In this document: in pieces, positions 17,040 to 59,777 of the stretch
Numbering within the stretch: position 1 is the stretch's first letter
Layout of the letters: each line of letters starts with the position of its first letter
DNA from: Candidatus Latescibacterota bacterium
Lineage (GTDB): Bacteria; Latescibacterota; UBA2968; UBA8231
Direction: 5' to 3'
Assembly (NCBI GenBank): GCA_965242865.1
Contig: CBDETK010000013.1
Span: forward strand, 3,648,001 to 3,712,000
DNA length: 64,000 nt
Made by a program: the position numbers and the translations under genes
The notes under the pieces: generated by a model
Databases searched by the model: none
What the model saw: the letters and a program-made list of their open reading frames with translations, nothing else
Told to the model about the DNA's origin: nothing

Positions 17040-17260
17040 CGGTCAAGACGCGCCGGTCCCTGCTTTTCTCTGTTGATCCTTTCGGTTATATTCGCCCTTT
17101 CCCCTCTAACCCATGGGAGGCGCGAAGCCCTTGGCTGTGCCCGATGGCGGGGAGCATGCTGGTAGGAGCGCGAGCGTTTTGGTTGTGGGGAGTGCGGCAC
17201 TATTCAGGGGCGTCGGCCTAGCGACGGTCCATTTTTCCACTTTAGAAAAGGACGACAGAA

Positions 17261-18250
17261 ATGAACGATAGACCGAGCGGCATGCACGTCGGGGTGCAGG
17301 GGATTGGGACCTCAAAGGTCGAGCTGGAGTTTCTGGTGCGCCACGGGGTGACGCACATGGACGCCGTTGTTGAGGACAACGAGGTCGAGACCTTGGTGCG
17401 GCATAAGGCGGCCGCGGCCGAGTACGGGGTGAGCATGGAGTCGATCCACATTGGCGTTCCCAAAAGCATCACGCTGGCGCGGGATCCACAGCGAGACCGG
17501 GACCTCGACGAGGTCTGCCGCTGGATCGAAAACGCGGGTACGGCCGGGCTGCGGGCATTGCTCTATAACTTCTGCATCCTGCCGCACCAGCGCACCGCCC
17601 CTACGCCCGGGCGCGGGGGCGTGATGTACAGCTCGTTTGACTTGGCGAAATTCGACAACGAAACCCTGAGCGAAGCGGGGGTGGTCAGCCGCGAAGAAGC
17701 GTTTGAACGGGCGGCCTACTGGCTCGAGCGCGTGATTCCGGTCGCCGAGGAAAACAAGGTGCAGATGGCCTGCCACCTCGACGACCCGCCCGCGCCGGTG
17801 CTGCGCGGCGTCGAGCGCTGGAACTGGCCGGTAATGGAGGGGCTCAAGCGCTTTTCCGAGTTGGTCGATAGCCCGTATCACGGCTTTAACTTTTGTTGCG
17901 GCGTGGCGTCTGAGGGGCTGGAAAATCCGGCCGCAGAACTCTGCGACATCGTGCGCTACTTCGGCGAGCGGGGAAAGCTGTTCAATATCCACTACCGCAA
18001 CATCAAGGGGGGGCTACACAACTTCCAAGAGGTCTGGCCCGACGAAGGCGACGTGGACATGCACGAGGTGGTATGCACTTTGAGGGACGTAGGCTATCAG
18101 TACATGCTGATGCCCGACCACGCGCCATCTCACCCGGACGACAAGGCACCCGAGGGCGTTTCGGGCCGGGTTCGCCAGGCCTGGGCCTTCCAGTTCGGGT
18201 ATATCATCGCCATGATCCAAGCGGCGAATAAAGAAGCGCGAACTGCGTAG
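17261..18250 (+). CDS. uxuA: Mannonate dehydratase (UxuA-like)
   Basis: YNFC, LERVIPVAEE, HLDDPP, HYRN, PDEGDVDM, MPDH, AFQFGYIIAMI. Confidence 0.7.
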   Translation: MNDRPSGMHVGVQGIGTSKVELEFLVRHGVTHMDAVVEDNEVETLVRHKAAAAEYGVSMESIHIGVPKSITLARDPQRDRDLDEVCRWIENAGTAGLRALLYNFCILPHQRTAPTPGRGGVMYSSFDLAKFDNETLSEAGVVSREEAFERAAYWLERVIPVAEENKVQMACHLDDPPAPVLRGVERWNWPVMEGLKRFSELVDSPYHGFNFCCGVASEGLENPAAELCDIVRYFGERGKLFNIHYRNIKGGLHNFQEVWPDEGDVDMHEVVCTLRDVGYQYMLMPDHAPSHPDDKAPEGVSGRVRQAWAFQFGYIIAMIQAANKEARTA

Positions 18251-30614: not shown

Positions 30615-30690
30615 TGGCTGCCCCCCTAGGGCTCGAACCTAGAACCTCCTGATCCAGAGTCAGGCGCACTTCCAATTGTGCTAGAGGGCA
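30615..30690 (-). tRNA. tRNA-Gln(CTG)
   Basis: TGCCCTC acceptor, anticodon arm CCTGA-CTCTGGA-TCAGG, GGTTCGAG T-loop, encoded CCA. Confidence 0.93.
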
Positions 30691-30702
30691 ACTAGGGGAA
30701 AT

Positions 30703-30796
<94 letters not shown>

Positions 30797-30869
30797 GAAA
30801 CTCAAAAATAAACTTTTGACGTGCTCCCACCGCTAAAAGGGATGGGGTTGGGGCGGCATCAAATGTAAC

Positions 30870-30956
30870 TGGCGGAGGGTGAGGGACTCGAACCCTCAAG
30901 GGCGTAAGCCCGGCGGTTTTCAAGACCGCTGCCTTACCAATTAGGTCTAACCCTCC
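30870..30956 (-). tRNA. tRNA-Ser(TGA)
   Basis: GGAGGGT acceptor, GCGGT-CTTGAAA-ACCGC, long variable arm, GGTTCGAGTCC, GCCA end. Confidence 0.95.
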
Positions 30957-36933: not shown

Positions 36934-38097
36934 TCATCCTGTTGGCCGCAAGGGCATTAGCAAGCAGAAGTAGTCCTCACCTTCCTTTTGTTCCACCGGC
37001 CGCAACAGGGCTGCTGTAACGTGGTCATTGAGCTCGAAACAGACCTCCTGCGCGTCCATCCGGCGCAAGATCTCCATCAGAAACTGGGCGTTGTAGCCAA
37101 CCTCTATCTCTTCAGAGGCGTATTGAGCCGGCACAACCTCCCTCGCTTCGCCGCCGATTTCGGGGCTGGCGGCCGAAAGCTCCACTTGGCCACTGTTTAG
37201 CTTAAAACGCACTTGACGAGTATAGGAACTAGAGAGGATGGACACCCGGCGTACGGCCGGCAGAAGATCTTGGCTAGCTATTCTTAGTTCTTTTTGGTTG
37301 TTTTGAGGGATGACTTGAGTATAGTTGACATAAGGCCCCTCAATCAGACGCGATAGCAAATGCGTCTGTCCTATATTAAACAGGATCTGCGCCTCGCCTA
37401 GCGTGACGTTGACGGGCCCTTTATAGTTACCCAGCAATTTGACGATCTGATTCAACGCTTGGGGGGGGACAATAACCTCGGTCTTTTGGTCGCTCTGCAC
37501 CTGATCCTGTAGATCCATGGCTAATCTGTAGCAAGCCAAGCGCGACCCGTCGGTAGCCACCATCTCCATTCCCTGAGCATCAATGCGCCAGAGCACCCCA
37601 TTGAACACTGGGCGCGTATCATCGCCGGAAACGGCAAAGGCTGTCTTATTAATCATGCCTGCTAGGACATTGGTATCGGTTTGGTCATCCCCTATACTCA
37701 GGTTTACGCCGTCAAGTGCTGTCGGCATACTAGGAAACTCTTCGGCCTCTATTCCCGACAGGCTATACGACCCTTCGCTGCTCTCAGCACCCCCGAGCTG
37801 CCCAGAGAGCCTAAGTCGCTCGTCCTGCACCTCAATACTCAGTTCCGACTCGGGCCATTCTCGAGTGATTTCTGCCAGCTTGCGAGCCGAAACGGTCGTC
37901 TTCCCCTCCGCTTCCACCACAGCAGGGACTTGAGTCCGGATGGACAAATCTAAATCCGTCGCAGACAGAGATAACGTTTTTGTATCGGCGTCAAGCAAAA
38001 TATTAGCCAACACCGGTAGGGAGGGCTTTGAAGGCACGGCTTCTAATACAGTATCAATGCCCCGCCATAACTCATTGCGATTTACTCTTAACTTCAT
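36934..38097 (-). CDS. dnaN: DNA polymerase III beta sliding clamp
   Basis: ATDLDL, VATDGSRLA, SRLIEGPY, LLMPLR. Confidence 0.96.
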   Translation of the reverse strand: MKLRVNRNELWRGIDTVLEAVPSKPSLPVLANILLDADTKTLSLSATDLDLSIRTQVPAVVEAEGKTTVSARKLAEITREWPESELSIEVQDERLRLSGQLGGAESSEGSYSLSGIEAEEFPSMPTALDGVNLSIGDDQTDTNVLAGMINKTAFAVSGDDTRPVFNGVLWRIDAQGMEMVATDGSRLACYRLAMDLQDQVQSDQKTEVIVPPQALNQIVKLLGNYKGPVNVTLGEAQILFNIGQTHLLSRLIEGPYVNYTQVIPQNNQKELRIASQDLLPAVRRVSILSSSYTRQVRFKLNSGQVELSAASPEIGGEAREVVPAQYASEEIEVGYNAQFLMEILRRMDAQEVCFELNDHVTAALLRPVEQKEGEDYFCLLMPLRPTG

Positions 38098-38152
38098 ACA
38101 AATCTTCTTTGGATTATCCTTCTGTCTGTGAACACTGTCTAAAGATTAACTC

Positions 38153-38181
38153 AACTTAGCTTTTATATCTACTTATGTCAA
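38153..38181 (-). promoter_or_regulatory. Putative sigma70 promoter of dnaN
   Basis: TTGACA-N17-TAAGTT. Confidence 0.6.
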
Positions 38182-38600
38182 GTTCTATAATATAGTGTCC
38201 CATTTTTTCATAAGAGAACATAAAAGCAGGTGTGTATTAATAAAAATAAAGGTGTGTATAGAAAAAAAAAAAAATACCCACACCATCCTTTCTTATAAAA
38301 TTACACTTCTCTGTGTTCTTTTTTTCTTAATAATTCTAGTTGTACTCGGGATATGTGGATAATCGTCTTACGGATCTATCTCTAAACAACAAAACATATT
38401 GTTAATAATATGTTTATGAGAAAAGAGAATTGATCGAACAGCAAGAAATTATATGTGGATTACTGAGTGGAAAACCCTAATTTTCCACAGATAAAAGTTA
38501 AAAATGACTGTTTTCTTTTGTCACGTAAAGTTATCCACACTGAATCAATACTCAGGCGGGGATAGGTGTGAATAGTTTTCCACTGTCAAATAGGCACTAT
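38182..38600. other. Chromosomal replication origin (oriC)
   Basis: Very AT-rich dnaA-dnaN spacer. DnaA boxes TGTGGATAA 38354-38362, TGTGGATTA 38454-38462, TTTTCCACA 38481-38489, TTATCCACA 38531-38539, plus weaker ones. Confidence 0.88.
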
Positions 38601-38662
38601 GGTACTAAAAACACAAGACGAAAAGGACCAAGAGGACAGAGGATTAAAGAGGCGGGCTAAGT

Positions 38663-40051
38663 TTAGCGGTTTTGCCGACGAATAGTATTGGACAAATCCT
38701 CAACTAGTTTGGCGAAGACTGGGTCGTTCTTACACTTATTCTCAACAGTGTTTACAGCGTACATGACTGTGGTGTGGTCGCTCCTGCCGAAGTGCTTAGC
38801 GATGGCTTTGAGGCTGAGGCTTCCTCCGATGAGATGCCTGACTAAGAACATGGCAATATGCCTTGCCCTTGCCACGTCTTGCTTTCGTCCTTTTCCGGTG
38901 AGTTGCTCTTGAGTCATATTGAAGTGGTCGGCGACATGCTGCTGGATCTCCTCAATGCTCAATTCCGCTGGGCTAGACCTCAATTTTAGAATATGCTTAG
39001 CCGCCTCGATGCTGCATTCCTTCTTGTAGATTGAGCAGTGGGCGATTAAGCTAATCAACGCCCCCTCGAGTTCGCGGACATTCGATCGGATATGAGTGCC
39101 CAACAGAGCGGCCACCTCATCGGGAAGCCGTATACCACTGCGCTCGGCCTTCTTGTGGAGGATGGCGATCCGGGTCTCGATCTCAGGCGGATCTATTGCG
39201 GTGGCCAGACCCCATATGACGCGGGATTTCAGCCTTTCTTCTAACCCATCAAGATGGCTGGGAGGACTGTCGCAGGTCATGACAATCTGCTTCTCGGACT
39301 GGTGCAAGGTATTAAAAGTGTGAAAGAATTCGTTCTGGGTCTGTTCGCCGCGGAGAAGAAACTGGATGTCATCGAACAGGAGGATGTCCATGTTTCGATA
39401 AAAGTTCTGAAATTCCCTCGTCTTATTGCGGTCTCGGAGCGATTGAATGAAATCGTTCATAAACTTTTCCGAGGGGACATAAATGACCTTTTCGGCGCGG
39501 TTGAGGTCATAGGCGCGATGTCCAATCGCTTGGAGCAGATGAGTTTTACCCAGCCCTGAGCCGCCATAAATCACGAGGGGATTAAATTCCGTGTTACCTG
39601 GGGAATTAGCTACAGCTAATGCCGTTGCATGGGCAAATCGATTGCTATCACCAATGATGAATTCTTCAAAGGTATATTTCTTATTAAGCGGTATTTGAAG
39701 GGGACTGGCTTCTACTGCTTCTTGGCCTCCCTCTGTGGATTCTTTTTTCGGAGCAGAGGGAGGGAGTACTGGATCAAGAACAGGTTGAGGTGCTTGTGCA
39801 ACGGTAAAGGAGATACTTGGAGTTAGTTTCGTCTCTTTCCTTACTACTGATTCGATCATCATCAAGTAGTGCTCCTCTAACCAAGCGGCAGAAAATGCAC
39901 TGGGAACTTGGATGACCAATAAGCCTTCGTCGAATTGGCTCACTGAAGTCTGCTTAAACCAATTATCAAATTTCTGGGGAAGAATTTGACGCTCAATGTT
40001 GAGCAGACACTGGGCCCAGATGTCTTGGGGATCCTGTTTTTCCAACACCAT
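38663..40051 (-). CDS. dnaA: Chromosomal replication initiator DnaA
   Basis: KYTFEEFIIGDSN, FNPLVIYGGSGLGKTHLL, DDIQF, RSNVRELEGAL, RSDHTTVMYA. Confidence 0.97.
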   Translation of the reverse strand: MVLEKQDPQDIWAQCLLNIERQILPQKFDNWFKQTSVSQFDEGLLVIQVPSAFSAAWLEEHYLMMIESVVRKETKLTPSISFTVAQAPQPVLDPVLPPSAPKKESTEGGQEAVEASPLQIPLNKKYTFEEFIIGDSNRFAHATALAVANSPGNTEFNPLVIYGGSGLGKTHLLQAIGHRAYDLNRAEKVIYVPSEKFMNDFIQSLRDRNKTREFQNFYRNMDILLFDDIQFLLRGEQTQNEFFHTFNTLHQSEKQIVMTCDSPPSHLDGLEERLKSRVIWGLATAIDPPEIETRIAILHKKAERSGIRLPDEVAALLGTHIRSNVRELEGALISLIAHCSIYKKECSIEAAKHILKLRSSPAELSIEEIQQHVADHFNMTQEQLTGKGRKQDVARARHIAMFLVRHLIGGSLSLKAIAKHFGRSDHTTVMYAVNTVENKCKNDPVFAKLVEDLSNTIRRQNR

Positions 40052-44098: not shown

Positions 44099-45077
44099 AC
44101 GTGAGTTCGGGTTAACCGGCCTCTGCTTGGCTGGGCCCGTTGGTTTTTAAGGTAGGTTTTTTGGGTTGGTGGGCATAGGCAATTAATCCGCTGATGAGAT
44201 GGACCATAAAATTGATTGGGCTTCGATGTCTGGTATGCTCAATCTGGGCGATATTGTTGAGTTGGTTGATGATGGTTTCGATGAGGGTTCGTTTATGTAG
44301 CAGGCGTTGGTCTGCGCGGGACAGGGGGTGCTTTTTCATGTTGGATCGGGGCTTGGTACTCAAGCGGAGGGCGCTCTGTGCGTTCAGTTGGTGGCCTAGC
44401 GTGCTGGAAATATACCCTCGGTCGGCGACCAACGTGCCAAACAGGTCGCGCACCAAGCCGACCACGGGTCGGCGATCATCGACGTTGCCGGGGGTCAGCC
44501 CCCAGTTGAGCACTTGGCCTTGATCATTACAGACCAGATGGAGCTTGAAGCCGAAAAACCACCCGGTCGAGCGTTTGCCCCATTGGGCAAGGCCGGCAAA
44601 CAGACGGTGCTGGTGCTGGCGCGCTGCCGCATAGACCTCCAACGGCGTGGAGTCGATAAACGAAATCCCCGTGCAGGAGCCTTGGCATGGACGCAGATAG
44701 ACGCCTAACGGAATAAGAGCCGAAGGCATTAACTCGACAAAACGCCCATAGCGGACTAACCCCGGAAACGCCCCGCGTAGAGGCCGACAGACCTGCTGCT
44801 GGTAGAACGCCTTGAACGTGCGATACTGAGACGGGTGAAACCAAATCAACAAGGTCATGATCTCGCTCAAACAAAGGGAACCCGCCCGCCGACGCTGACG
44901 CCGCCCCGCCGTGAACTGGGCGCGTAGCCACGAAGGCTCAAAACCTGGGCAAAAATCATCGACAGGGCAAAACAGTTCAACTCAATTCATCGGGAGGGCT
45001 CCCGGATGGCTAAGGGGTATAGGGCTATACCTAAGTTTAGCCAAAAAGGAGACCCTCACCTTAACCCGAACTCACGT
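44099..45077 (-). mobile_element. IS982-family element; transposase 44112-44990 has TGA at codon 3
   Basis: 17-bp TIR ACGTGAGTTCGGGTTAA / TTAACCCGAACTCACGT; 7-bp TSD TAATATG (44092-44098, 45078-45084); motifs LFC.VDDFC, FIDSTP, GWFFGFKLHL, ADRGYIS, IET. Confidence 0.93.
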
Positions 45078-49289: not shown

Positions 49290-50180
49290 CTAACCAATGG
49301 TGCTAGTGTTTTATAATCCGAACTCGGCGATAGACAACGGGACGAATCCGTTTTCATCGGGTTGGAATCCATGCCACTGCACCAGCCGGTTGAAGGCGGC
49401 CATGGCAAAGCTCAGATGGGCGGTACAATACGCCCAAGCCCGATGGGTCTGCTGCTTAAAGCGGCGATTCGGGTGAGCATGGAAAAGACCGTCTCAATGA
49501 GCATCCGCTCGTTCCACGTGTTCCGAGGACAGACTTTCAGATTGGCCGGATCGCCGGCTTGGGCATGACAAGCCTGGGTCGCTGAGCAGGATCATCTTCT
49601 GTTGGAAGCGTCGGATCATGGGATGAAAGACCGAATCGTGGACTTATGCCGTATTCCAATCCCAATCAACGATCCGCCCCCACTGATTGACGATAACGCA
49701 GAGCTTACCGCCGACGATCCAGCGGTGATCGGAGAGCCCTTTCTTCCCGATGGAGTGCCGCGCACGGCCTTGACGCACCGGATGGATCAACTCGATGCCA
49801 TAGCGGTCGACCACCCCCAACGTCGTCGGCTCCGCTCGGAAGCGGTCGGTCCAATCGTCATGGGTGGCGAAGAGGCGGAACAAGCGGGGGCGCGACGGCA
49901 GGCGCGGGAACCAAGCCTGCCAGTCCCGCACCCGCCAGTGGTAAAACGCCCGTTTACCCCCGCCTTTGAGCGCATACAACATCCCTAAGGTGACCACCTC
50001 ACTGGGGTATAGGGACGCTTGCGGGTGTTTGGGCACGTCAAGCATCTGATTGTCAATGCGGTAGAACAGGGCTATTATAAACTCGGCCGTGGTCATCAGG
50101 ACGCTCCGTGGCTGAAAGGGTGGATACTCTCAGCGTAGGAACTACCATGACCACGGTCAATATACTAGCACCATTGGTTA
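49290..50180 (-). mobile_element. IS element copy 2 (same element as 9191-10083, inverted), degenerate transposase
   Basis: Same TIRs; CTA duplication at 49287-49289 and 50181-50183; ORF 49644-50096 stops at the same NTA* codon and has further indels downstream. Confidence 0.87.
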
Positions 50181-54693: not shown

Positions 54694-55644
54694 CTACACA
54701 TCAAGCTGTCTTTGAATGGGCATCGCCTGTAGATAACCCCGAGTGCGGCTGGACCAGAACAGATAACTAAAGACCAAATCCGGGACGTAGGTTTTCATCA
54801 GCCAGCGGGTCAACCAGCGGATTGGGTAGTGAATCGGCGGCGACAGGGCTAGCTGAAGTGCGATCCGCCGAGGAGAAAATCCAGAGGCCCTGATGAAGTC
54901 CAGCCAGAGTACGGCGTCAAGTTCAGGGTGCTTGCGTAAAAGGACGGGGATTGACTTGCTGCCGTAAGTTTGCATTAAGCGGCAGAGTGGCTCCAATGAA
55001 CGCAAGTGATAGTGGTAGGACAGGGCTTCAGGAGCATAGTAAAGCGGAATACCCGCTAAATGGAGGCGATACCCCAATTCTAGATCTTCGCCGCCATAAG
55101 CAGTGAGATCCTCGTCAAAAAAACCCACGCGGAGCAGGGATGACCGGCGAACCGAGGAGTTGCCGGTGACGAAGCACTTGAAAGGTATGGGCTTTTCCGC
55201 GTCAATTCTGTGAACCCCCCTCCTTTCGAGATAGCGGGTTAGGGATGTAGGGGGAATTTCAGGGGCAAAGCGGATGTTGCCGATAAAAACGGCTTCCGCG
55301 TGGGTTTGATGCCGTTGGGCATGGGCACGGAGGAAATTTATGCCGACGGTCATATCGCTGTCGAGAAAGATGACCAGATCACCGCTGGCGACTTGAAGTG
55401 CTGCGTTGCGTGCCCGAGCTCGTCCCTGATTCTGTTTGTTGCGAATCAACCGCAACCGTAAAGGCGCGACTGCCGCATATAAGCGCTCGGCGTCCAAGTG
55501 AGGAGAGGCGTCGTCCACCACGATGACTTGAATCGCCTCATGGGGATAATTTTGCTGCGACAGGCTTTTAAGTGCTGCTTCGAGGCACTTAGGTTCGCCA
55601 TAGGTAGGCATTACGATACTGAGCGTCAGCGGGGGGGCACTCAT
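54694..55644 (-). CDS. Glycosyltransferase family 2
   Basis: SIVMPTY, VVDDAS, ARN, FLDSD, GGEDLELGYRL. Confidence 0.9.
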   Translation of the reverse strand: MSAPPLTLSIVMPTYGEPKCLEAALKSLSQQNYPHEAIQVIVVDDASPHLDAERLYAAVAPLRLRLIRNKQNQGRARARNAALQVASGDLVIFLDSDMTVGINFLRAHAQRHQTHAEAVFIGNIRFAPEIPPTSLTRYLERRGVHRIDAEKPIPFKCFVTGNSSVRRSSLLRVGFFDEDLTAYGGEDLELGYRLHLAGIPLYYAPEALSYHYHLRSLEPLCRLMQTYGSKSIPVLLRKHPELDAVLWLDFIRASGFSPRRIALQLALSPPIHYPIRWLTRWLMKTYVPDLVFSYLFWSSRTRGYLQAMPIQRQLDV

Positions 55645-56756
55645 GCTAGGGTTGCATAAAGCTGAGTGAGTTGAGCAGTTTCTCGTTCCCAGTTATAGTG
55701 CTGTGCCGCCTGCAAACTCGCCTTAGCACACGCCTCCCGCTGCTCTGCATTGTCCAAAAAAGTGGCGATTTGCTCCCGGATGGCAACGATATCGGTTGGG
55801 TCGACTGTAGATCCGGTATGCGTTTCGCAGACGATACGCTGCATTTCGGGAAAATTGCTAGCTAGGACCGGTAGCCCGGCCATCATATATTCAAAGAGCT
55901 TGTTGGGCAGAGAGTAGTAAAAGCTCTTGCCCGTGCCTTTGATAAGACACAGGCCCAAGTCGGCCGAGCAAGTATAGTTGTGAAGTTGGTGAAAGGGCAC
56001 CCGGGGAATAAAATAGACTTGGTCGTCTAGTCTCCCAGCGCGGACTTGGTTTCGCAGGGCCTGTTCGCTAGGTCCATCCCCAATTAAAACTAGGGCCGCG
56101 GCAAGCCCAGCGGCGGCCTTGATTTGCTCACGTAAGCCATTTTCGGTGAGGAATCCTCCTTGGTAGAGAACAATAGGGCGATCATCGGGCAGGTCCAGCG
56201 TTTCGCGTATCAGGTTGCTTTGGACCTTATGGCGGAATAGCGGCAAATTATGCAGCACAACGACCTCGTCAAGGCCGTAACGGTCCTTGAGTGATTGGGC
56301 GATAGACCCGCTGACGGTTATGACTCGATCTACCCGTCTTATCAGCCGCTGCTCCAGCAAACGCCAGCAGGACCGCATCAGCGGCCGGCTGACCAGTGAG
56401 GATTGTTCGGTCCAAAATTCGTGTGAGTCATAAACGATGGGCCGATCTAGTCGCCGTGCAGCCCGTACTGCTGGCCAAAGCGAGTCTAGGTCGTGGGCGT
56501 GGTAGGCATCCGGCTGGATCTCAACCAGTAGTGAATAAGCTCGTTGCCAAAACAAAGGATAGAGACGGCGCAATGAGAGGCTGCGGTCTAGCGGAATCGG
56601 ATAGACTTCAAAATCGTCCCATCCCTTGAGGGGAGCTGAGTTGAACGAGGAGGCGACAATGACGACTTGGTACCCAGCATGGCGTAGCGAAGTGGCCTCT
56701 CGGTAGATGCGGTAGTCGAAATTCAGGTCGGTAAAGGCGACCATACAGATACGCAT
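55641..56756 (-). CDS. Glycosyltransferase family 4
   Basis: HAHDL, YDSHE, YQGG, PNKLFEYMMAGLPV, YNWE; start at MRICMV. Confidence 0.9.
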   Translation of the reverse strand: MRICMVAFTDLNFDYRIYREATSLRHAGYQVVIVASSFNSAPLKGWDDFEVYPIPLDRSLSLRRLYPLFWQRAYSLLVEIQPDAYHAHDLDSLWPAVRAARRLDRPIVYDSHEFWTEQSSLVSRPLMRSCWRLLEQRLIRRVDRVITVSGSIAQSLKDRYGLDEVVVLHNLPLFRHKVQSNLIRETLDLPDDRPIVLYQGGFLTENGLREQIKAAAGLAAALVLIGDGPSEQALRNQVRAGRLDDQVYFIPRVPFHQLHNYTCSADLGLCLIKGTGKSFYYSLPNKLFEYMMAGLPVLASNFPEMQRIVCETHTGSTVDPTDIVAIREQIATFLDNAEQREACAKASLQAAQHYNWERETAQLTQLYATLA

Positions 56757-56784: not shown

Positions 56785-56819
56785 AAAAATAAAAGCAGCC
56801 CTTCTAAAGTGGGCTGCTT
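56785..56819 (-). terminator. Intrinsic terminator downstream of the candidate ncRNA
   Basis: AAGCAGCCC-N9-GGGCTGCTT followed by TTATTTTT on the minus strand. Confidence 0.8.
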
Positions 56820-56828
56820 CTTAAAAAA

Positions 56829-56992
56829 AGAGTGTGGCGGCCAGATGGTGTGATCTTGAAACGCAAGTGAGATCCTCAAACGAGGCGGTGTGGGGAGGTA
56901 GTTTTGAAGATCTCAATGACCCGAAAAGGGAAATCCGAGCTTCGCGGATCAGGATTTTGGCCACGCTATGCGGACCGCCACACTCTATGTTG
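56829..56992 (-). ncRNA. Candidate structured ncRNA (unknown family)
   Basis: 12-bp closing stem 56829-56840/56975-56986; 13-bp internal stem with a G-U pair only on the minus strand; two small hairpins; flanking promoter and terminator; no credible ORF. Confidence 0.65.
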
Positions 56993-56998
56993 GAAATA

Positions 56999-57093
56999 AA
57001 AATACACACGCTAGATTGTGTTGTCAAGTGGAAAAACGGATGCTAAGAAAATGATAATGGAGTCTTGCACACTTACAAGTGTGTGCATATCTT
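56999..57093. promoter_or_regulatory. Back-to-back sigma70 promoters, each with an operator-like CACAC-N6-KTGTG site
   Basis: Minus: TTGACA(57027-57022)-N17-TATTTT. Plus: TTGCAC(57065-57070)-N17-TATCTT. Sites CACACGCTAGATTGTG 57005-57020 and CACACTTACAAGTGTG 57068-57083. Confidence 0.65.
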
Positions 57094-57133
57094 AGTAGAG
57101 GAAATGGTTGAAAATAGTTCAGAAGGATCGCAA

Positions 57134-57667
57134 ATGCAGTTTGCTGAAATGATCAAGGAGGCTCGGCTACAAGCCCACCTAAGCCAGCAGAAATTGGCCG
57201 AACAACTCGTGACGGCGCGAAGGCCCAAGGGCGTATGGGCAACCTATATAGGACAAATTGAGAAGGGGGAGAAGGTTCCTTCCGACGAAATATGTATCAA
57301 GTTGGCCGAGGTATTGGGACTCGACTCCGACAAAGTATTGATTGCGGCTTATGAGGCCAAGGCGAGCTCGGAGGAAGGGCGTGCGATCTATGGTAAGATG
57401 ATGCGCTTGCTGTCGGACCCAGTAGTCAACAAGCTCTTGTCTAACAAAGAGCCTTTGGACCCAGCTCTCTTGAAATTGCTCTCTAATCCAGAAATCGTGG
57501 CACTGCTTGGGGATCAACCGTGGATAGAGGCAGTTGCCCGAGTACATGCGAACCAGAAGGAACGCGATGTATTGTCCCTGCTCGCTTTAGCAGAGGCGAT
57601 GGACGATAAACAGTGGAATATGATAATGGGCCTTATAGAGACTTGGGGCTTAGGGCTACCTAGTTGA
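57134..57667 (+). CDS. XRE-family HTH transcriptional regulator with helical C-terminal extension
   Basis: FAEMIKEARLQAHLSQQKLAE...YIGQIEKGEKVPS....KLAEVLGLD; AGAAGGA RBS. Confidence 0.8.
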   Translation: MQFAEMIKEARLQAHLSQQKLAEQLVTARRPKGVWATYIGQIEKGEKVPSDEICIKLAEVLGLDSDKVLIAAYEAKASSEEGRAIYGKMMRLLSDPVVNKLLSNKEPLDPALLKLLSNPEIVALLGDQPWIEAVARVHANQKERDVLSLLALAEAMDDKQWNMIMGLIETWGLGLPS

Positions 57668-58225: not shown

Positions 58226-58921
58226 CTACGGCCCCTCAGATTGGGCTTCAGCACTTGCTTTATTAACGAGCAATTCGATTGCGTCCCGTAGCCGAGCGGC
58301 CTCTTCGTATTCTTCGCAGATAATGGCCTGTTGTAGCTGGTGCTGAAGCAGACTGAGTTCGTCCTTCTCTTCTTTGAGGGGCTGTTGAGTTTCGGCTTCT
58401 TCAGCGTTCCGCTTCAAGGGGCGGATATTGAGCGATTTGGAAATCTGCGCTTCAAAATCATAGAAACGGTTCAGGGTGTGTTCAACGTCCAAGTCGGTCT
58501 CCAAAGGCTCCAAGCCCAGCTCGTCCAGCAACCTATGAGAAACGTAGATAGGCGCGTCAGTACGCAAGGCCAAAGCAATCGCGTCGCTGGGACGTGCGTC
58601 GAGGTCTTTTATTGTGTGATCCTTCTCAATGACGACCCTCGCGTAGTAAATTGAGTGGCGCACGTTGTGAATGACAACTTGGCGGACACTCACCGCAAGG
58701 TAGTCGACCATAGAAGAGAGCAAGTCGTAAGAAATCGGACGTATGGGCCCATCGTCTTCTAGCCGCATCCGAATGGCCGCGGCCTCAAACTCGCCAATGG
58801 GAATGGGCAAGAGCCGCGGCAGTTGACCTTCCTTCTCGCTCAACCAGACCAAGGGCTTGTCATCTCGCAAGTAGGGACTAACCTTGACCACGGTCATCTC
58901 GACTAAAGAGGTATTACTCAT
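58226..58921 (-). CDS. Bifunctional nuclease (DUF151) with C-terminal UVR motif
   Basis: LLPIPIGEFEAAAI, RPISYDL, DARPSDAIALALR..APIYV, AIICEEYEEAARLRD. Confidence 0.9.
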   Translation of the reverse strand: MSNTSLVEMTVVKVSPYLRDDKPLVWLSEKEGQLPRLLPIPIGEFEAAAIRMRLEDDGPIRPISYDLLSSMVDYLAVSVRQVVIHNVRHSIYYARVVIEKDHTIKDLDARPSDAIALALRTDAPIYVSHRLLDELGLEPLETDLDVEHTLNRFYDFEAQISKSLNIRPLKRNAEEAETQQPLKEEKDELSLLQHQLQQAIICEEYEEAARLRDAIELLVNKASAEAQSEGP

Positions 58922-59526
58922 TAATCATCCCTGTCGAGGCGGCTGATCTCGTCGCGCAGCCGCGCCGCCTCCTCGTAGATCTCTTCGGCAACAGCTTGGT
59001 CCATGCGTCTTTTGAGTCGTTCTAATTGGCTGATGGCTGGGGGGGCGATGACGGGCGGTGCGGCCACGGGTCTGGCGAGGGCTTCAACTTTAGTTGGAAC
59101 CCATTGGTCATCGTCGGAGCGGACGCAGCCCACCTCTTTGAGGATTTCGACCGCGGCGTAGATCGGTGCGCGAAAGCGCAAGGCCAAGGCAATTGCATCG
59201 CTGGGACGTGCGTCGATCGTGTGAGTCTTGCCCTCGTCGTCGACGAGGTGAACCTCAGCGTAGTACGTTCCCTCATGTGAGTTAAAGTAAGTGATTTCGA
59301 CCCGGGCTACCCGAGCATGGACATTGGCGAGAATCTGATGGGCTAGGTCGTAGCTGATGGGGCGCACTGATTGCCGCTTGCTGTGGGCTATAGAAATGGC
59401 GGCCGCCTCAAAGCGGCCAATGACAATGTGCAGATAATAATTGCCCTCAACTTCTTTGAGTACTACTTCAGGGTATAAAGACTGAGATTTGCTGCTTAAA
59501 ACCTCCTTGACTTCCATCAGAACCAT
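58921..59526 (-). CDS. Second bifunctional nuclease (DUF151) with C-terminal UVR motif
   Basis: IVIGRFEAAAI, RPISYDL, IDARPSDAIALALR..APIY, AVAEEIYEEAARLRDEI. Confidence 0.9.
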   Translation of the reverse strand: MVLMEVKEVLSSKSQSLYPEVVLKEVEGNYYLHIVIGRFEAAAISIAHSKRQSVRPISYDLAHQILANVHARVARVEITYFNSHEGTYYAEVHLVDDEGKTHTIDARPSDAIALALRFRAPIYAAVEILKEVGCVRSDDDQWVPTKVEALARPVAAPPVIAPPAISQLERLKRRMDQAVAEEIYEEAARLRDEISRLDRDD

Positions 59527-59597
59527 AGCGGTGCATCGCGGTTTAGTGGGCTGCTGTCGTTTAACGTGTGAAATATAATACGGCCTCAAAGTAAGTG

Positions 59598-59777
59598 TCA
59601 ACCGACGGGTGCTTCTTGGCCATCCGGCAAATCGTCCTCTTTGTTATTCAGCTTCAACTCAAGTTCTGCGAGTTGGCGGCCTAGTTCCCCGGTGCGCCGG
59701 TTTAGGCGCATCAGATAGGCAAAAAGCACGGCCCACACGGCCGCGAAGGCGGCAAACAAGTAGTGGAGATTGTCCAT
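59598..59777 (-). CDS. ccmD: Heme exporter protein CcmD (not in the ORF track)
   Basis: 59 aa MDNLHYLFAAFAAVWAVLFAYLMRLNRR...; single TM plus coiled tail, directly after ccmC. Confidence 0.8.
   Translation of the reverse strand: MDNLHYLFAAFAAVWAVLFAYLMRLNRRTGELGRQLAELELKLNNKEDDLPDGQEAPVG

Follow-up and report, generated by a model that had tools for sequence, protein, structure and literature searches.

A predicted structured RNA gene conserved beside a divergent XRE-family regulator in Latescibacterota

Analysis of a 64-kb window, that is, the whole stretch of 64,000 nucleotides examined here from contig CBDETK010000013.1 of a Candidatus Latescibacterota bacterium, drew attention to an intergenic region that appears to harbor a structured RNA gene. 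The region is flanked on one side by a glycosyltransferase gene of family GT4 (55641-56756, minus strand), which is followed by a GT2 gene (54694-55644, minus strand), and on the other side by a gene encoding a regulator of the XRE family (57134-57667, plus strand). The gap between the start codons of GT4 (ATG, 56756) and XRE (ATG, 57134) measures 377 bp, in agreement with the approximately 380 bp given in an initial annotation made from the sequence alone, and contains a complete minus-strand transcription unit. Its promoter was found precisely where that annotation had placed it, at 57027-56999, and consists of a -35 box TTGACA (57027-57022), a 17-nt spacer, and a -10 box TATTTT (57004-56999). 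With 10 of 12 matches in our promoter scan, it is a near-consensus site of the sigma-70 type; over 800 bp, the scan called 3 promoter-like sites versus 0.6 expected. From the position of the promoter, we infer a transcription start near 56991. At the opposite end, the unit is bounded by a minus-strand intrinsic terminator (56822-56785; hairpin 56822-56790) composed of an 11-pair stem and a 9-nt loop followed by UUUUAUUUUU. The core of this hairpin comprises perfect 9-bp arms (56811-56819 and 56793-56801), again followed by UUUUAUUUUU, and its pair probability is 0.966; the earlier description of a strong terminator holds. The terminator was nevertheless missed by our terminator scan, because the scan allows loops of 3-8 nt and the 9-nt loop exceeds this range. 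The 3′ end of the RNA would thus lie within the terminator, which extends to 56785, and the gene is probably a stand-alone unit of ~205 nt that begins around 56991 and ends at about 56785. Accordingly equipped with a promoter and an intrinsic terminator of its own, the candidate resembles, at the sequence level, trans-acting small RNAs (sRNAs) with C-rich loops.

The folded core of the RNA occupies 158 nt (56986-56829, minus strand) and is predicted to adopt a Y-shaped structure, in which a 14-bp closing stem and a variable internal region carry two hairpins, A and B. The minimum free energy of the ~160-nt core is -60 kcal/mol, compared with -38.7 +/- 3.5 kcal/mol for 200 shuffled sequences (z score -6.07), none of which folded as well. 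The plus strand also folds well (z score -5.24), as expected for a sequence with inverted repeats. The closing stem is built on a perfect 12-bp helix, AGAGUGUGGCGG/CCGCCACACUCU, whose arms lie at 56975-56986 and 56829-56840 (the latter reads AGAGTGTGGCGG and has its exact complement at the former) and enclose 134 nt, as had been claimed; the predicted fold lengthens it to 14 pairs. Hairpin A (56919-56940, minus strand) is formed by GCUCGGA/UUCGGGU and exposes the C-rich loop UUUCCCUU at 56933-56926. In this part of the molecule, the initial annotation had proposed an ATCCG/CGGAT hairpin, which is present in the window; its middle pair, however, is unpaired in four of the six aligned sequences described below, and the consensus fold favors GCUCGGA/UUCGGGU together with CGCGA/UUGCG. 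Hairpin B (56868-56915, minus strand) has a 13-bp stem (56915-56903 with 56880-56868) and a 22-nt apical loop, the largest unpaired stretch of the fold. In keeping with the initial annotation, 12 of the 13 positions of the stem are complementary, and the remaining one forms a U-G pair when read on the minus strand. The apical loop contains the C-rich sequence UACCUCCCCACACCGCCUCG (56881-56900, minus strand), the proposed seed, which occurs once in the window. The terminator folds separately from this core. A U-tract separates the two in the window; the U7 tract noted earlier is not retained in relatives.

To obtain related loci, we scanned genomes with an alignment of 20 XRE homologs as seed, which yielded 595 pattern matches, and at least eight loci were confirmed (L001-L008). 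Among the matches listed, all eight related loci are titled Candidatus Latescibacterota or Latescibacteria, and further related loci probably exist. Complete chromosomes bearing the RNA include the records OZ241362.1, OY730476.1, and OZ244235.1. Five of these at least eight loci (L001-L005) carry the same RNA in the same position and orientation; their XRE protein is 82-84% (L001-L004) or 43% (L005) identical to that of the window. Nucleotide identity to the window in the RNA core, the XRE gene, and the GT4 gene amounts to 97.5%, 86.1%, and 89.1% in L004; 93.7%, 86.7%, and 87.0% in L002; 93.0%, 85.6%, and 89.0% in L001; and 89.2%, 85.8%, and 88.4% in L003, respectively. Hence, in these four loci, the RNA core is better conserved than both flanking genes. 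In the more divergent L005, the RNA core is 75% and the GT4 gene 63% identical to the window, and the XRE gene gives no nucleotide match. The longest invariant run comprises 25 consecutive columns identical in all six sequences; it covers the apical loop UACCUCCCCACACCGCCUCG and reaches into the beginning of the 3′ arm. The molecule is predicted to present a conserved and accessible C-rich hairpin-loop motif, the loop having an unpaired probability of 0.96-0.98 in the three sequences evaluated (window, L001, and L005). The closing stem and hairpin B also retain their sequence and not just their pairing; variability is greatest in the internal-loop region. Equivalent terminators were called in L001 (pair probability 0.960) and, with unrelated sequence, at the same position in L005 (0.979). 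In L005 (2777-2836, minus strand), the conserved TTGACA promoter is ~60 nt more distant from the RNA core than its counterpart in the window. A TATAAT box and a further ACAC-N6-GTGT palindrome lie in this additional sequence, so that transcription of the RNA may begin elsewhere in this locus.

The fold is retained in all five relatives. The RNAalifold consensus of the six-sequence alignment contains 48 pairs, four of which are supported by compensatory changes, and 98.3% of its 288 pair cells are standard pairs (97.6% of the cells are paired in hairpin A, the loop of which reads UUCCCCUU in L005, and 100% in hairpin B, where one UA pair is replaced by CG). None of 500 column shuffles reached the observed pairing, covariation score, or number of compensatory pairs, and sliding the partners by 1-3 columns lowered pairing to 34-48%. 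L005 alone folds into the same Y-shape (-77.8 kcal/mol, z score -7.15). Furthermore, 49 of the 288 pair cells are G-U and none are A-C, with the result that the minus strand is 98.3% paired versus 81.3% for the plus strand. On the basis of this G-U pattern, the promoter, and the terminator, the RNA gene is assigned to the minus strand.

The adjacent regulator is a 177-aa protein with an N-terminal Cro/CI-type helix-turn-helix (HTH) domain (Pfam HTH_3) and a helical C-terminal part without a family match. It has 117 homologs, most of which, among those listed, are likewise 177 aa long. A profile search against PDB matched only residues 2-92 of the XRE profile, to Cro/CI repressors, controller (C) proteins of restriction-modification systems, and HipB, proteins known to bind palindromic operators as dimers. 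A search of XRE against NCBIfam returned merely sub-threshold generic HTH matches, and an Atlas search with the XRE homolog P0044 returned HTH clusters only. The RNA promoter is divergent from the XRE gene in all nine sequences (the window and the loci listed), with 107-162 bp between the -35 box and the XRE start, an arrangement of the type known from the sRNA SgrS and its regulator SgrR. Two operator-like palindromes lie in the gap. Palindrome 1, ACAC-N8-GTGT (57006-57021), takes up the 17-nt spacer between the two boxes of the RNA promoter; palindrome 2, ACACTTACAAGTGT (ACAC-N6-GTGT; 57069-57082), is located in the XRE promoter region. The ACAC-N6-GTGT pattern is matched twice in 64 kb (0.44 expected), the other copy being in the replication-origin gap described below; of four matches to the looser CACA-N6-10-TGTG in the window, two lie 63 bp apart within the GT4-XRE gap. 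Both sites are carried by L001-L004, where palindrome 1 occupies the same place, and L005 has three N6 palindromes within 150 bp. More broadly, L001-L006 and L008 carry the N6 palindrome in their XRE-RNA region, and L007 carries the N8 form. L006-L008 have one palindrome inside the transcribed region and an ACAC-N6-GCGT element in the spacer; related ACAC-N6-G(T/C)GT elements are present in the promoter spacer of L005-L008. This placement of the palindromes would fit repression combined with autoregulation by XRE.

The three most distant loci, L006-L008, in which XRE is 36-40% identical to that of the window, display a different RNA at the equivalent position. The divergent RNA promoter aligns across all nine sequences, with CTTGACAA(C/T)ACA and the -10 region conserved, and was called independently in L001 and L007 (11 of 12 matches in the latter). 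In addition, the 8-mer CUCCCCAC, which is the core of the loop UACCUCCCCACACCGCCUCG, is present at the equivalent place upstream of XRE in all eight loci listed. The predicted transcript of L006-L008 (L006 2575-2808, L007 2625-2847, L008 2625-2848; minus strand) is ~220 nt long and contains five hairpins with 64 predicted pairs, 7 of them compensatory (z score -5.69 in L007). The arms of the first hairpin covary and its loop contains CUCCCCAC, and the last, terminator-like hairpin encloses UUCCCCUUUCUCCCC; the C-rich loops of this second class are CGCUCCCCACG and UUCCCCUUUCUCCCC. Searches of these RNAs against Rfam retrieved no family (E<=0.1). On the RNA side of L006-L008, we found a fumarylacetoacetase-family gene and a small gene of unknown function with coiled-coil-like features, with no glycosyltransferase gene downstream; on the XRE side lies gidB, followed in L006 by mnmE. 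Since XRE, the promoter, and the loop persist in L006-L008 with another scaffold and another downstream gene, the constant unit appears to consist of XRE, the promoter, and an RNA presenting C-rich loops, and the glycosyltransferases appear to fall outside it. It is also of note that in L007 (2698-2705) and L008 (2699-2706), CUCCCCAC is a perfect complement of GUGGGGAG, a sequence within the 5′ arm of the terminator-like stem that closes off the same RNA; an internal switch is conceivable in these two RNAs.

The RNA does not correspond to any family known to Rfam. At the gathering score, Rfam 15, whose families include 6S, signal recognition particle, tmRNA, RNase P, riboswitch, 6C, and ar14/cuckoo models, identified only three tRNAs in the 64-kb window. 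At E<=10, the 501-bp region surrounding the RNA produced seven matches (E 1.2-8.1), all far below the gathering score and none of them to 6S RNA, signal recognition particle RNA, or 6C RNA; at E<=0.1, the eight loci gave none. The cmscan check suggested in the initial annotation, which included the 6S model RF00013, therefore ends without a significant match. The possibility of a mobile element was likewise addressed by copy number: searches with the stem arm, with the loop, and with the covariance model all located a single copy in the 64-kb window, there is one copy per locus, and blastn searches in distant mode against plasmid and phage collections found no match to the RNA. The multiple copies expected of a miniature inverted-repeat transposable element are thus missing from the window and the loci, and such an element was rejected as a candidate. 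A coding gene was rejected as well, because indels of 1 and 2 nt shift every open frame and the only shared peptide mirrors the invariant loop, as was a retron msr-msd RNA, given that the genes downstream are GT4 and GT2 and no reverse transcriptase gene lies directly downstream. Collectively, the sequence comparisons indicate that the locus carries a conserved, hitherto undescribed, strand-specific, non-coding structured RNA gene tied to XRE across Latescibacterota. We consider it a candidate new RNA family, and probably a regulatory RNA of a familiar kind rather than a new class or principle.

With regard to function, we favor, with moderate confidence, an independent sRNA that acts in trans by base-pairing via its C-rich loops and whose synthesis is governed by the divergently encoded XRE protein of the Cro/CI type. 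In the proposed mechanism, an XRE dimer would bind the ACAC-N6/8-GTGT palindromes in the spacer of the RNA promoter and in the XRE promoter, thereby setting both the synthesis of the RNA and its own level; the C-terminal half of XRE would sense a signal; and the RNA would act in trans, its exposed loops UUUCCCUU and UACCUCCCCACACCGCCUCG pairing with G-rich mRNA stretches and altering the translation or stability of the target mRNAs. Transcription, the binding of XRE and its sign, the signal, the action in trans, and the targets are all proposed here from sequence features, and pairing with G-rich mRNA is suggested by analogy with the C-rich-loop sRNAs discussed below. If this reading is correct, orthologous mRNAs would share conserved G-rich sites complementary to CCUCCCCACAC.

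Several observations weigh against it. The loop was compared with the region from -60 to +150 around longest-frame starts of 60 open reading frames (ORFs) of the window, with 600 random windows as control, and the mean duplex energy was -18.9 kcal/mol versus -18.6 kcal/mol for the random windows, without any target being identified. Shine-Dalgarno-like 4-mers precede 15 of 56 ORF starts, compared with 5-14 of 56 at six control offsets, and since they are not clearly enriched, a general anti-Shine-Dalgarno role lacks support. The XRE mRNA was rejected as a conserved target, as its G-rich stretch is not retained at synonymous sites in L006 and L007. The covariance model R1, built from the six-sequence alignment, recovers L005 (138.5 bits) but not the RNAs of L006-L008; its other matches there consist of terminator hairpins that were aligned to the closing stem. 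The argument that the two RNA classes share an ancestor consequently rests on the promoter, the position, and the 8-nt loop motif. All four compensatory pairs of the consensus stem from L005, and six sequences afford little covariation power, so that the covariation is supportive and not statistically decisive. The initial annotation spoke of twin operators, and two palindromes are indeed present; they are, however, unequal members of one palindrome type, with spacings of N8 and N6. Finally, only ~30 nt (window and L001-L004) or ~50 nt (L005) intervene between the terminator and the start of GT4, which leaves scant room for a separate GT4 promoter. Two further observations concern possible target sites in the window. 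A 9-nt perfect complement of the loop, UGUGGGGAG, occurs at 17184-17192, ~70 nt upstream of the ORF at 17261-18250 (~0.5 expected by chance), and the 8-mer CTCCCCAC has 3 matches versus 2.1 expected.

The short spacing between the terminator and GT4 bears on an alternative of a different kind, already raised in the initial annotation as a riboswitch or attenuator, namely that the RNA is a cis-acting or dual-function leader of GT4-GT2, in which the terminator stops most transcription and a protein or ligand acting on the fold permits read-through. Such antitermination is known from polysaccharide operons, where it involves the EAR element or the NusG-like proteins UpxY, LoaP, and RfaH. Consistent with this possibility, the RNA, terminator, GT4, and GT2 are co-directional in the window and L001-L005, the order of RNA and GT4 is kept even in L005 with its 63% identical GT4 gene, and promoter scans of the window, L001, and L005 called no sigma-70-like promoter between the terminator and GT4. 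On the other hand, no structure rivals the terminator in any of the three sequences in which its pair probability was determined (0.96-0.98), and an expression platform with competing pairing was accordingly not found; the invariant bases lie in the apical loop and not in junctions; and no Rfam riboswitch or leader family matches the window or the loci. Moreover, the glycosyltransferases are the downstream genes only in the window and L001-L005, whereas L006-L008, with their different RNA scaffold, keep the promoter, the C-rich-loop RNA, and XRE upstream of the small coiled-coil-like gene, which in L007 is preceded by a promoter-like site. Because the terminator is predicted to form and the loop to be unpaired, and the terminator of L005 is unrelated in sequence yet placed at the same position, a stand-alone RNA is favored. 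We therefore regard a leader function, dedicated or dual, as unlikely, GT4 being either a possible read-through target or a mere neighbor; GT4-GT2 may still be expressed to some extent by read-through, in which case the RNA would serve two functions.

Also unlikely, in our assessment, is that the RNA works by binding protein, either as a sponge or scaffold that holds an RNA-binding protein on its C-rich single strands or as a functional counterpart of 6S RNA. The conservation of sequence beyond pairing in the closing stem and hairpin B would suit such a role, as would the length and high degree of structure, which are unusual for a base-pairing sRNA, the lack of an mRNA target among the start regions of the window, and the chromosomal, single-copy location near the replication origin in both clades, reminiscent of a housekeeping gene. 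Yet the only linked candidate partner is XRE, the sole recognized domain of which is DNA-binding. As for 6S RNA (RF00013), which the initial annotation had considered in a divergent form, it binds RNA polymerase holoenzyme, serves as the template for product RNAs, and is built as a rod whose closing and terminal stems flank a large, conserved central bubble. The RNA described here shares with it the size, the strong promoter, the long closing stem, and the housekeeping-like chromosomal location, but has no match to the model at E<=10 and no conserved central bubble: the fold is Y-shaped, its closing stem bears two hairpins, the conserved single strand is the apical 22-nt loop, and the internal-loop region, where the bubble would be, is the least conserved part. 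On these grounds, identity with 6S RNA is not supported. That the region does not function as RNA at all, being instead a mobile element built on inverted repeats, a gene for a small protein, or a fold that arose by chance, is extremely improbable. Both strands do fold well, and open frames of 53-90 codons cross the region in several relatives; against this stand the presence of just one copy in the 64-kb window, as in every related locus, and the lack of a match in the plasmid and phage collections, the syntenic position in five other species, the conservation exceeding that of the neighboring genes, the strand-specific G-U pattern, and the 1- and 2-nt indels that shift the frames among close relatives. 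This explanation can be considered largely refuted, and a trans-acting sRNA under the control of XRE is the reading carried forward here.

Comparison with characterized systems places such an sRNA in familiar company. The C-rich loops of the 6C sRNA are described as binding mRNAs directly at G-rich sites (PMC6486639). Like 6C of Actinobacteria, the Latescibacterota RNA is a stand-alone structured RNA with conserved C-rich hairpin loops. It differs from 6C in the absence of a sequence or covariance-model match, in coming from another phylum, in its larger size (~205 nt), and in its long closing stem; we know of no regulator gene linked to 6C. The cuckoo RNAs of Alphaproteobacteria are reported to retain CCUCCUCCC in their loops while the hairpin scaffolds around it vary; their principal linkage is to an uncharacterized gene, with which they are co-transcribed in Rhodobacter (PMC4615179). 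Similarly, the two RNA classes of Latescibacterota share CUCCCCAC on different scaffolds. The differences are that the motif is CUCCCCAC and not CCUCCUCCC, that the RNA is single-copy whereas cuckoo RNAs are clustered or paralogous, and that cuckoo RNAs are not divergent from a regulator. With respect to genomic arrangement, it is reported that SgrS and GcvB are encoded divergently from regulators, that SgrS homologs have diverged in size and sequence, and that the gene of the factor provides a handle for finding sRNA homologs that have diverged in this manner (PMC2760817). The divergent promoters of XRE and the RNA correspond to those of SgrR/SgrS and GcvA/GcvB; the difference lies in the regulator, here a Cro/CI-type XRE protein, and in that its putative regulation of the RNA is suggested by the palindromes. 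OxyR/OxyS is a further regulator-sRNA pair.

A bolder interpretation, which we consider very unlikely as it stands, is that XRE, the promoter with its operator, and the CUCCCCAC loop constitute an ancient, origin-proximal riboregulatory unit of Latescibacterota in which the scaffold was replaced between clades. The RNA would then be the main post-transcriptional regulator, mimicking the anti-Shine-Dalgarno sequence of 16S rRNA on G-rich ribosome-binding sites and possibly feeding back on XRE. Irrespective of this, to our knowledge, Latescibacterota have no cultured or genetically tractable member, and our literature searches on regulatory RNAs of the phylum (structured RNA, sRNA, riboswitch) retrieved nothing relevant as judged by title and abstract. 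An RNA conserved alongside one constant regulator would accordingly offer a first concrete entry point to gene regulation in Latescibacterota, and might represent one more independent case of C-rich loops as the working surface of an sRNA.

The window as a whole is chromosomal and contains gyrA, gyrB, dciA, recF, dnaN, a gap rich in DnaA boxes, dnaA, rnpA, yidC, mnmE, gidB, rplU, rpmA, and sucCD. The gap (38100-38660) is an AT-rich stretch of 565 bp between dnaN (36934-38097) and dnaA (38663-40051) with several boxes of the TTATCCACA type, the cumulative GC skew of the window reaches its minimum at 36-40 kb, and the gap is likely the replication origin. The G+C content is 0.61-0.63 over most of the first 24 kb and 0.48-0.53 at 36-60 kb. 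Three tRNA genes follow each other on the minus strand just downstream of gyrA (30618-30956). The ORF designated orf162 showed no similarity to the HEAT-repeat gene found at the equivalent place in L005. A DDE transposase gene (44112-44870) is inserted between mnmE and gidB, and a 150-aa ORF (49644-50096) has a weak, sub-threshold match to the IS982 transposase. Beyond XRE, two tandem genes with bifunctional-nuclease (BFN) domains, the second of which also carries a UVR motif, occupy 58226-59601, and the same pair is present in L005.

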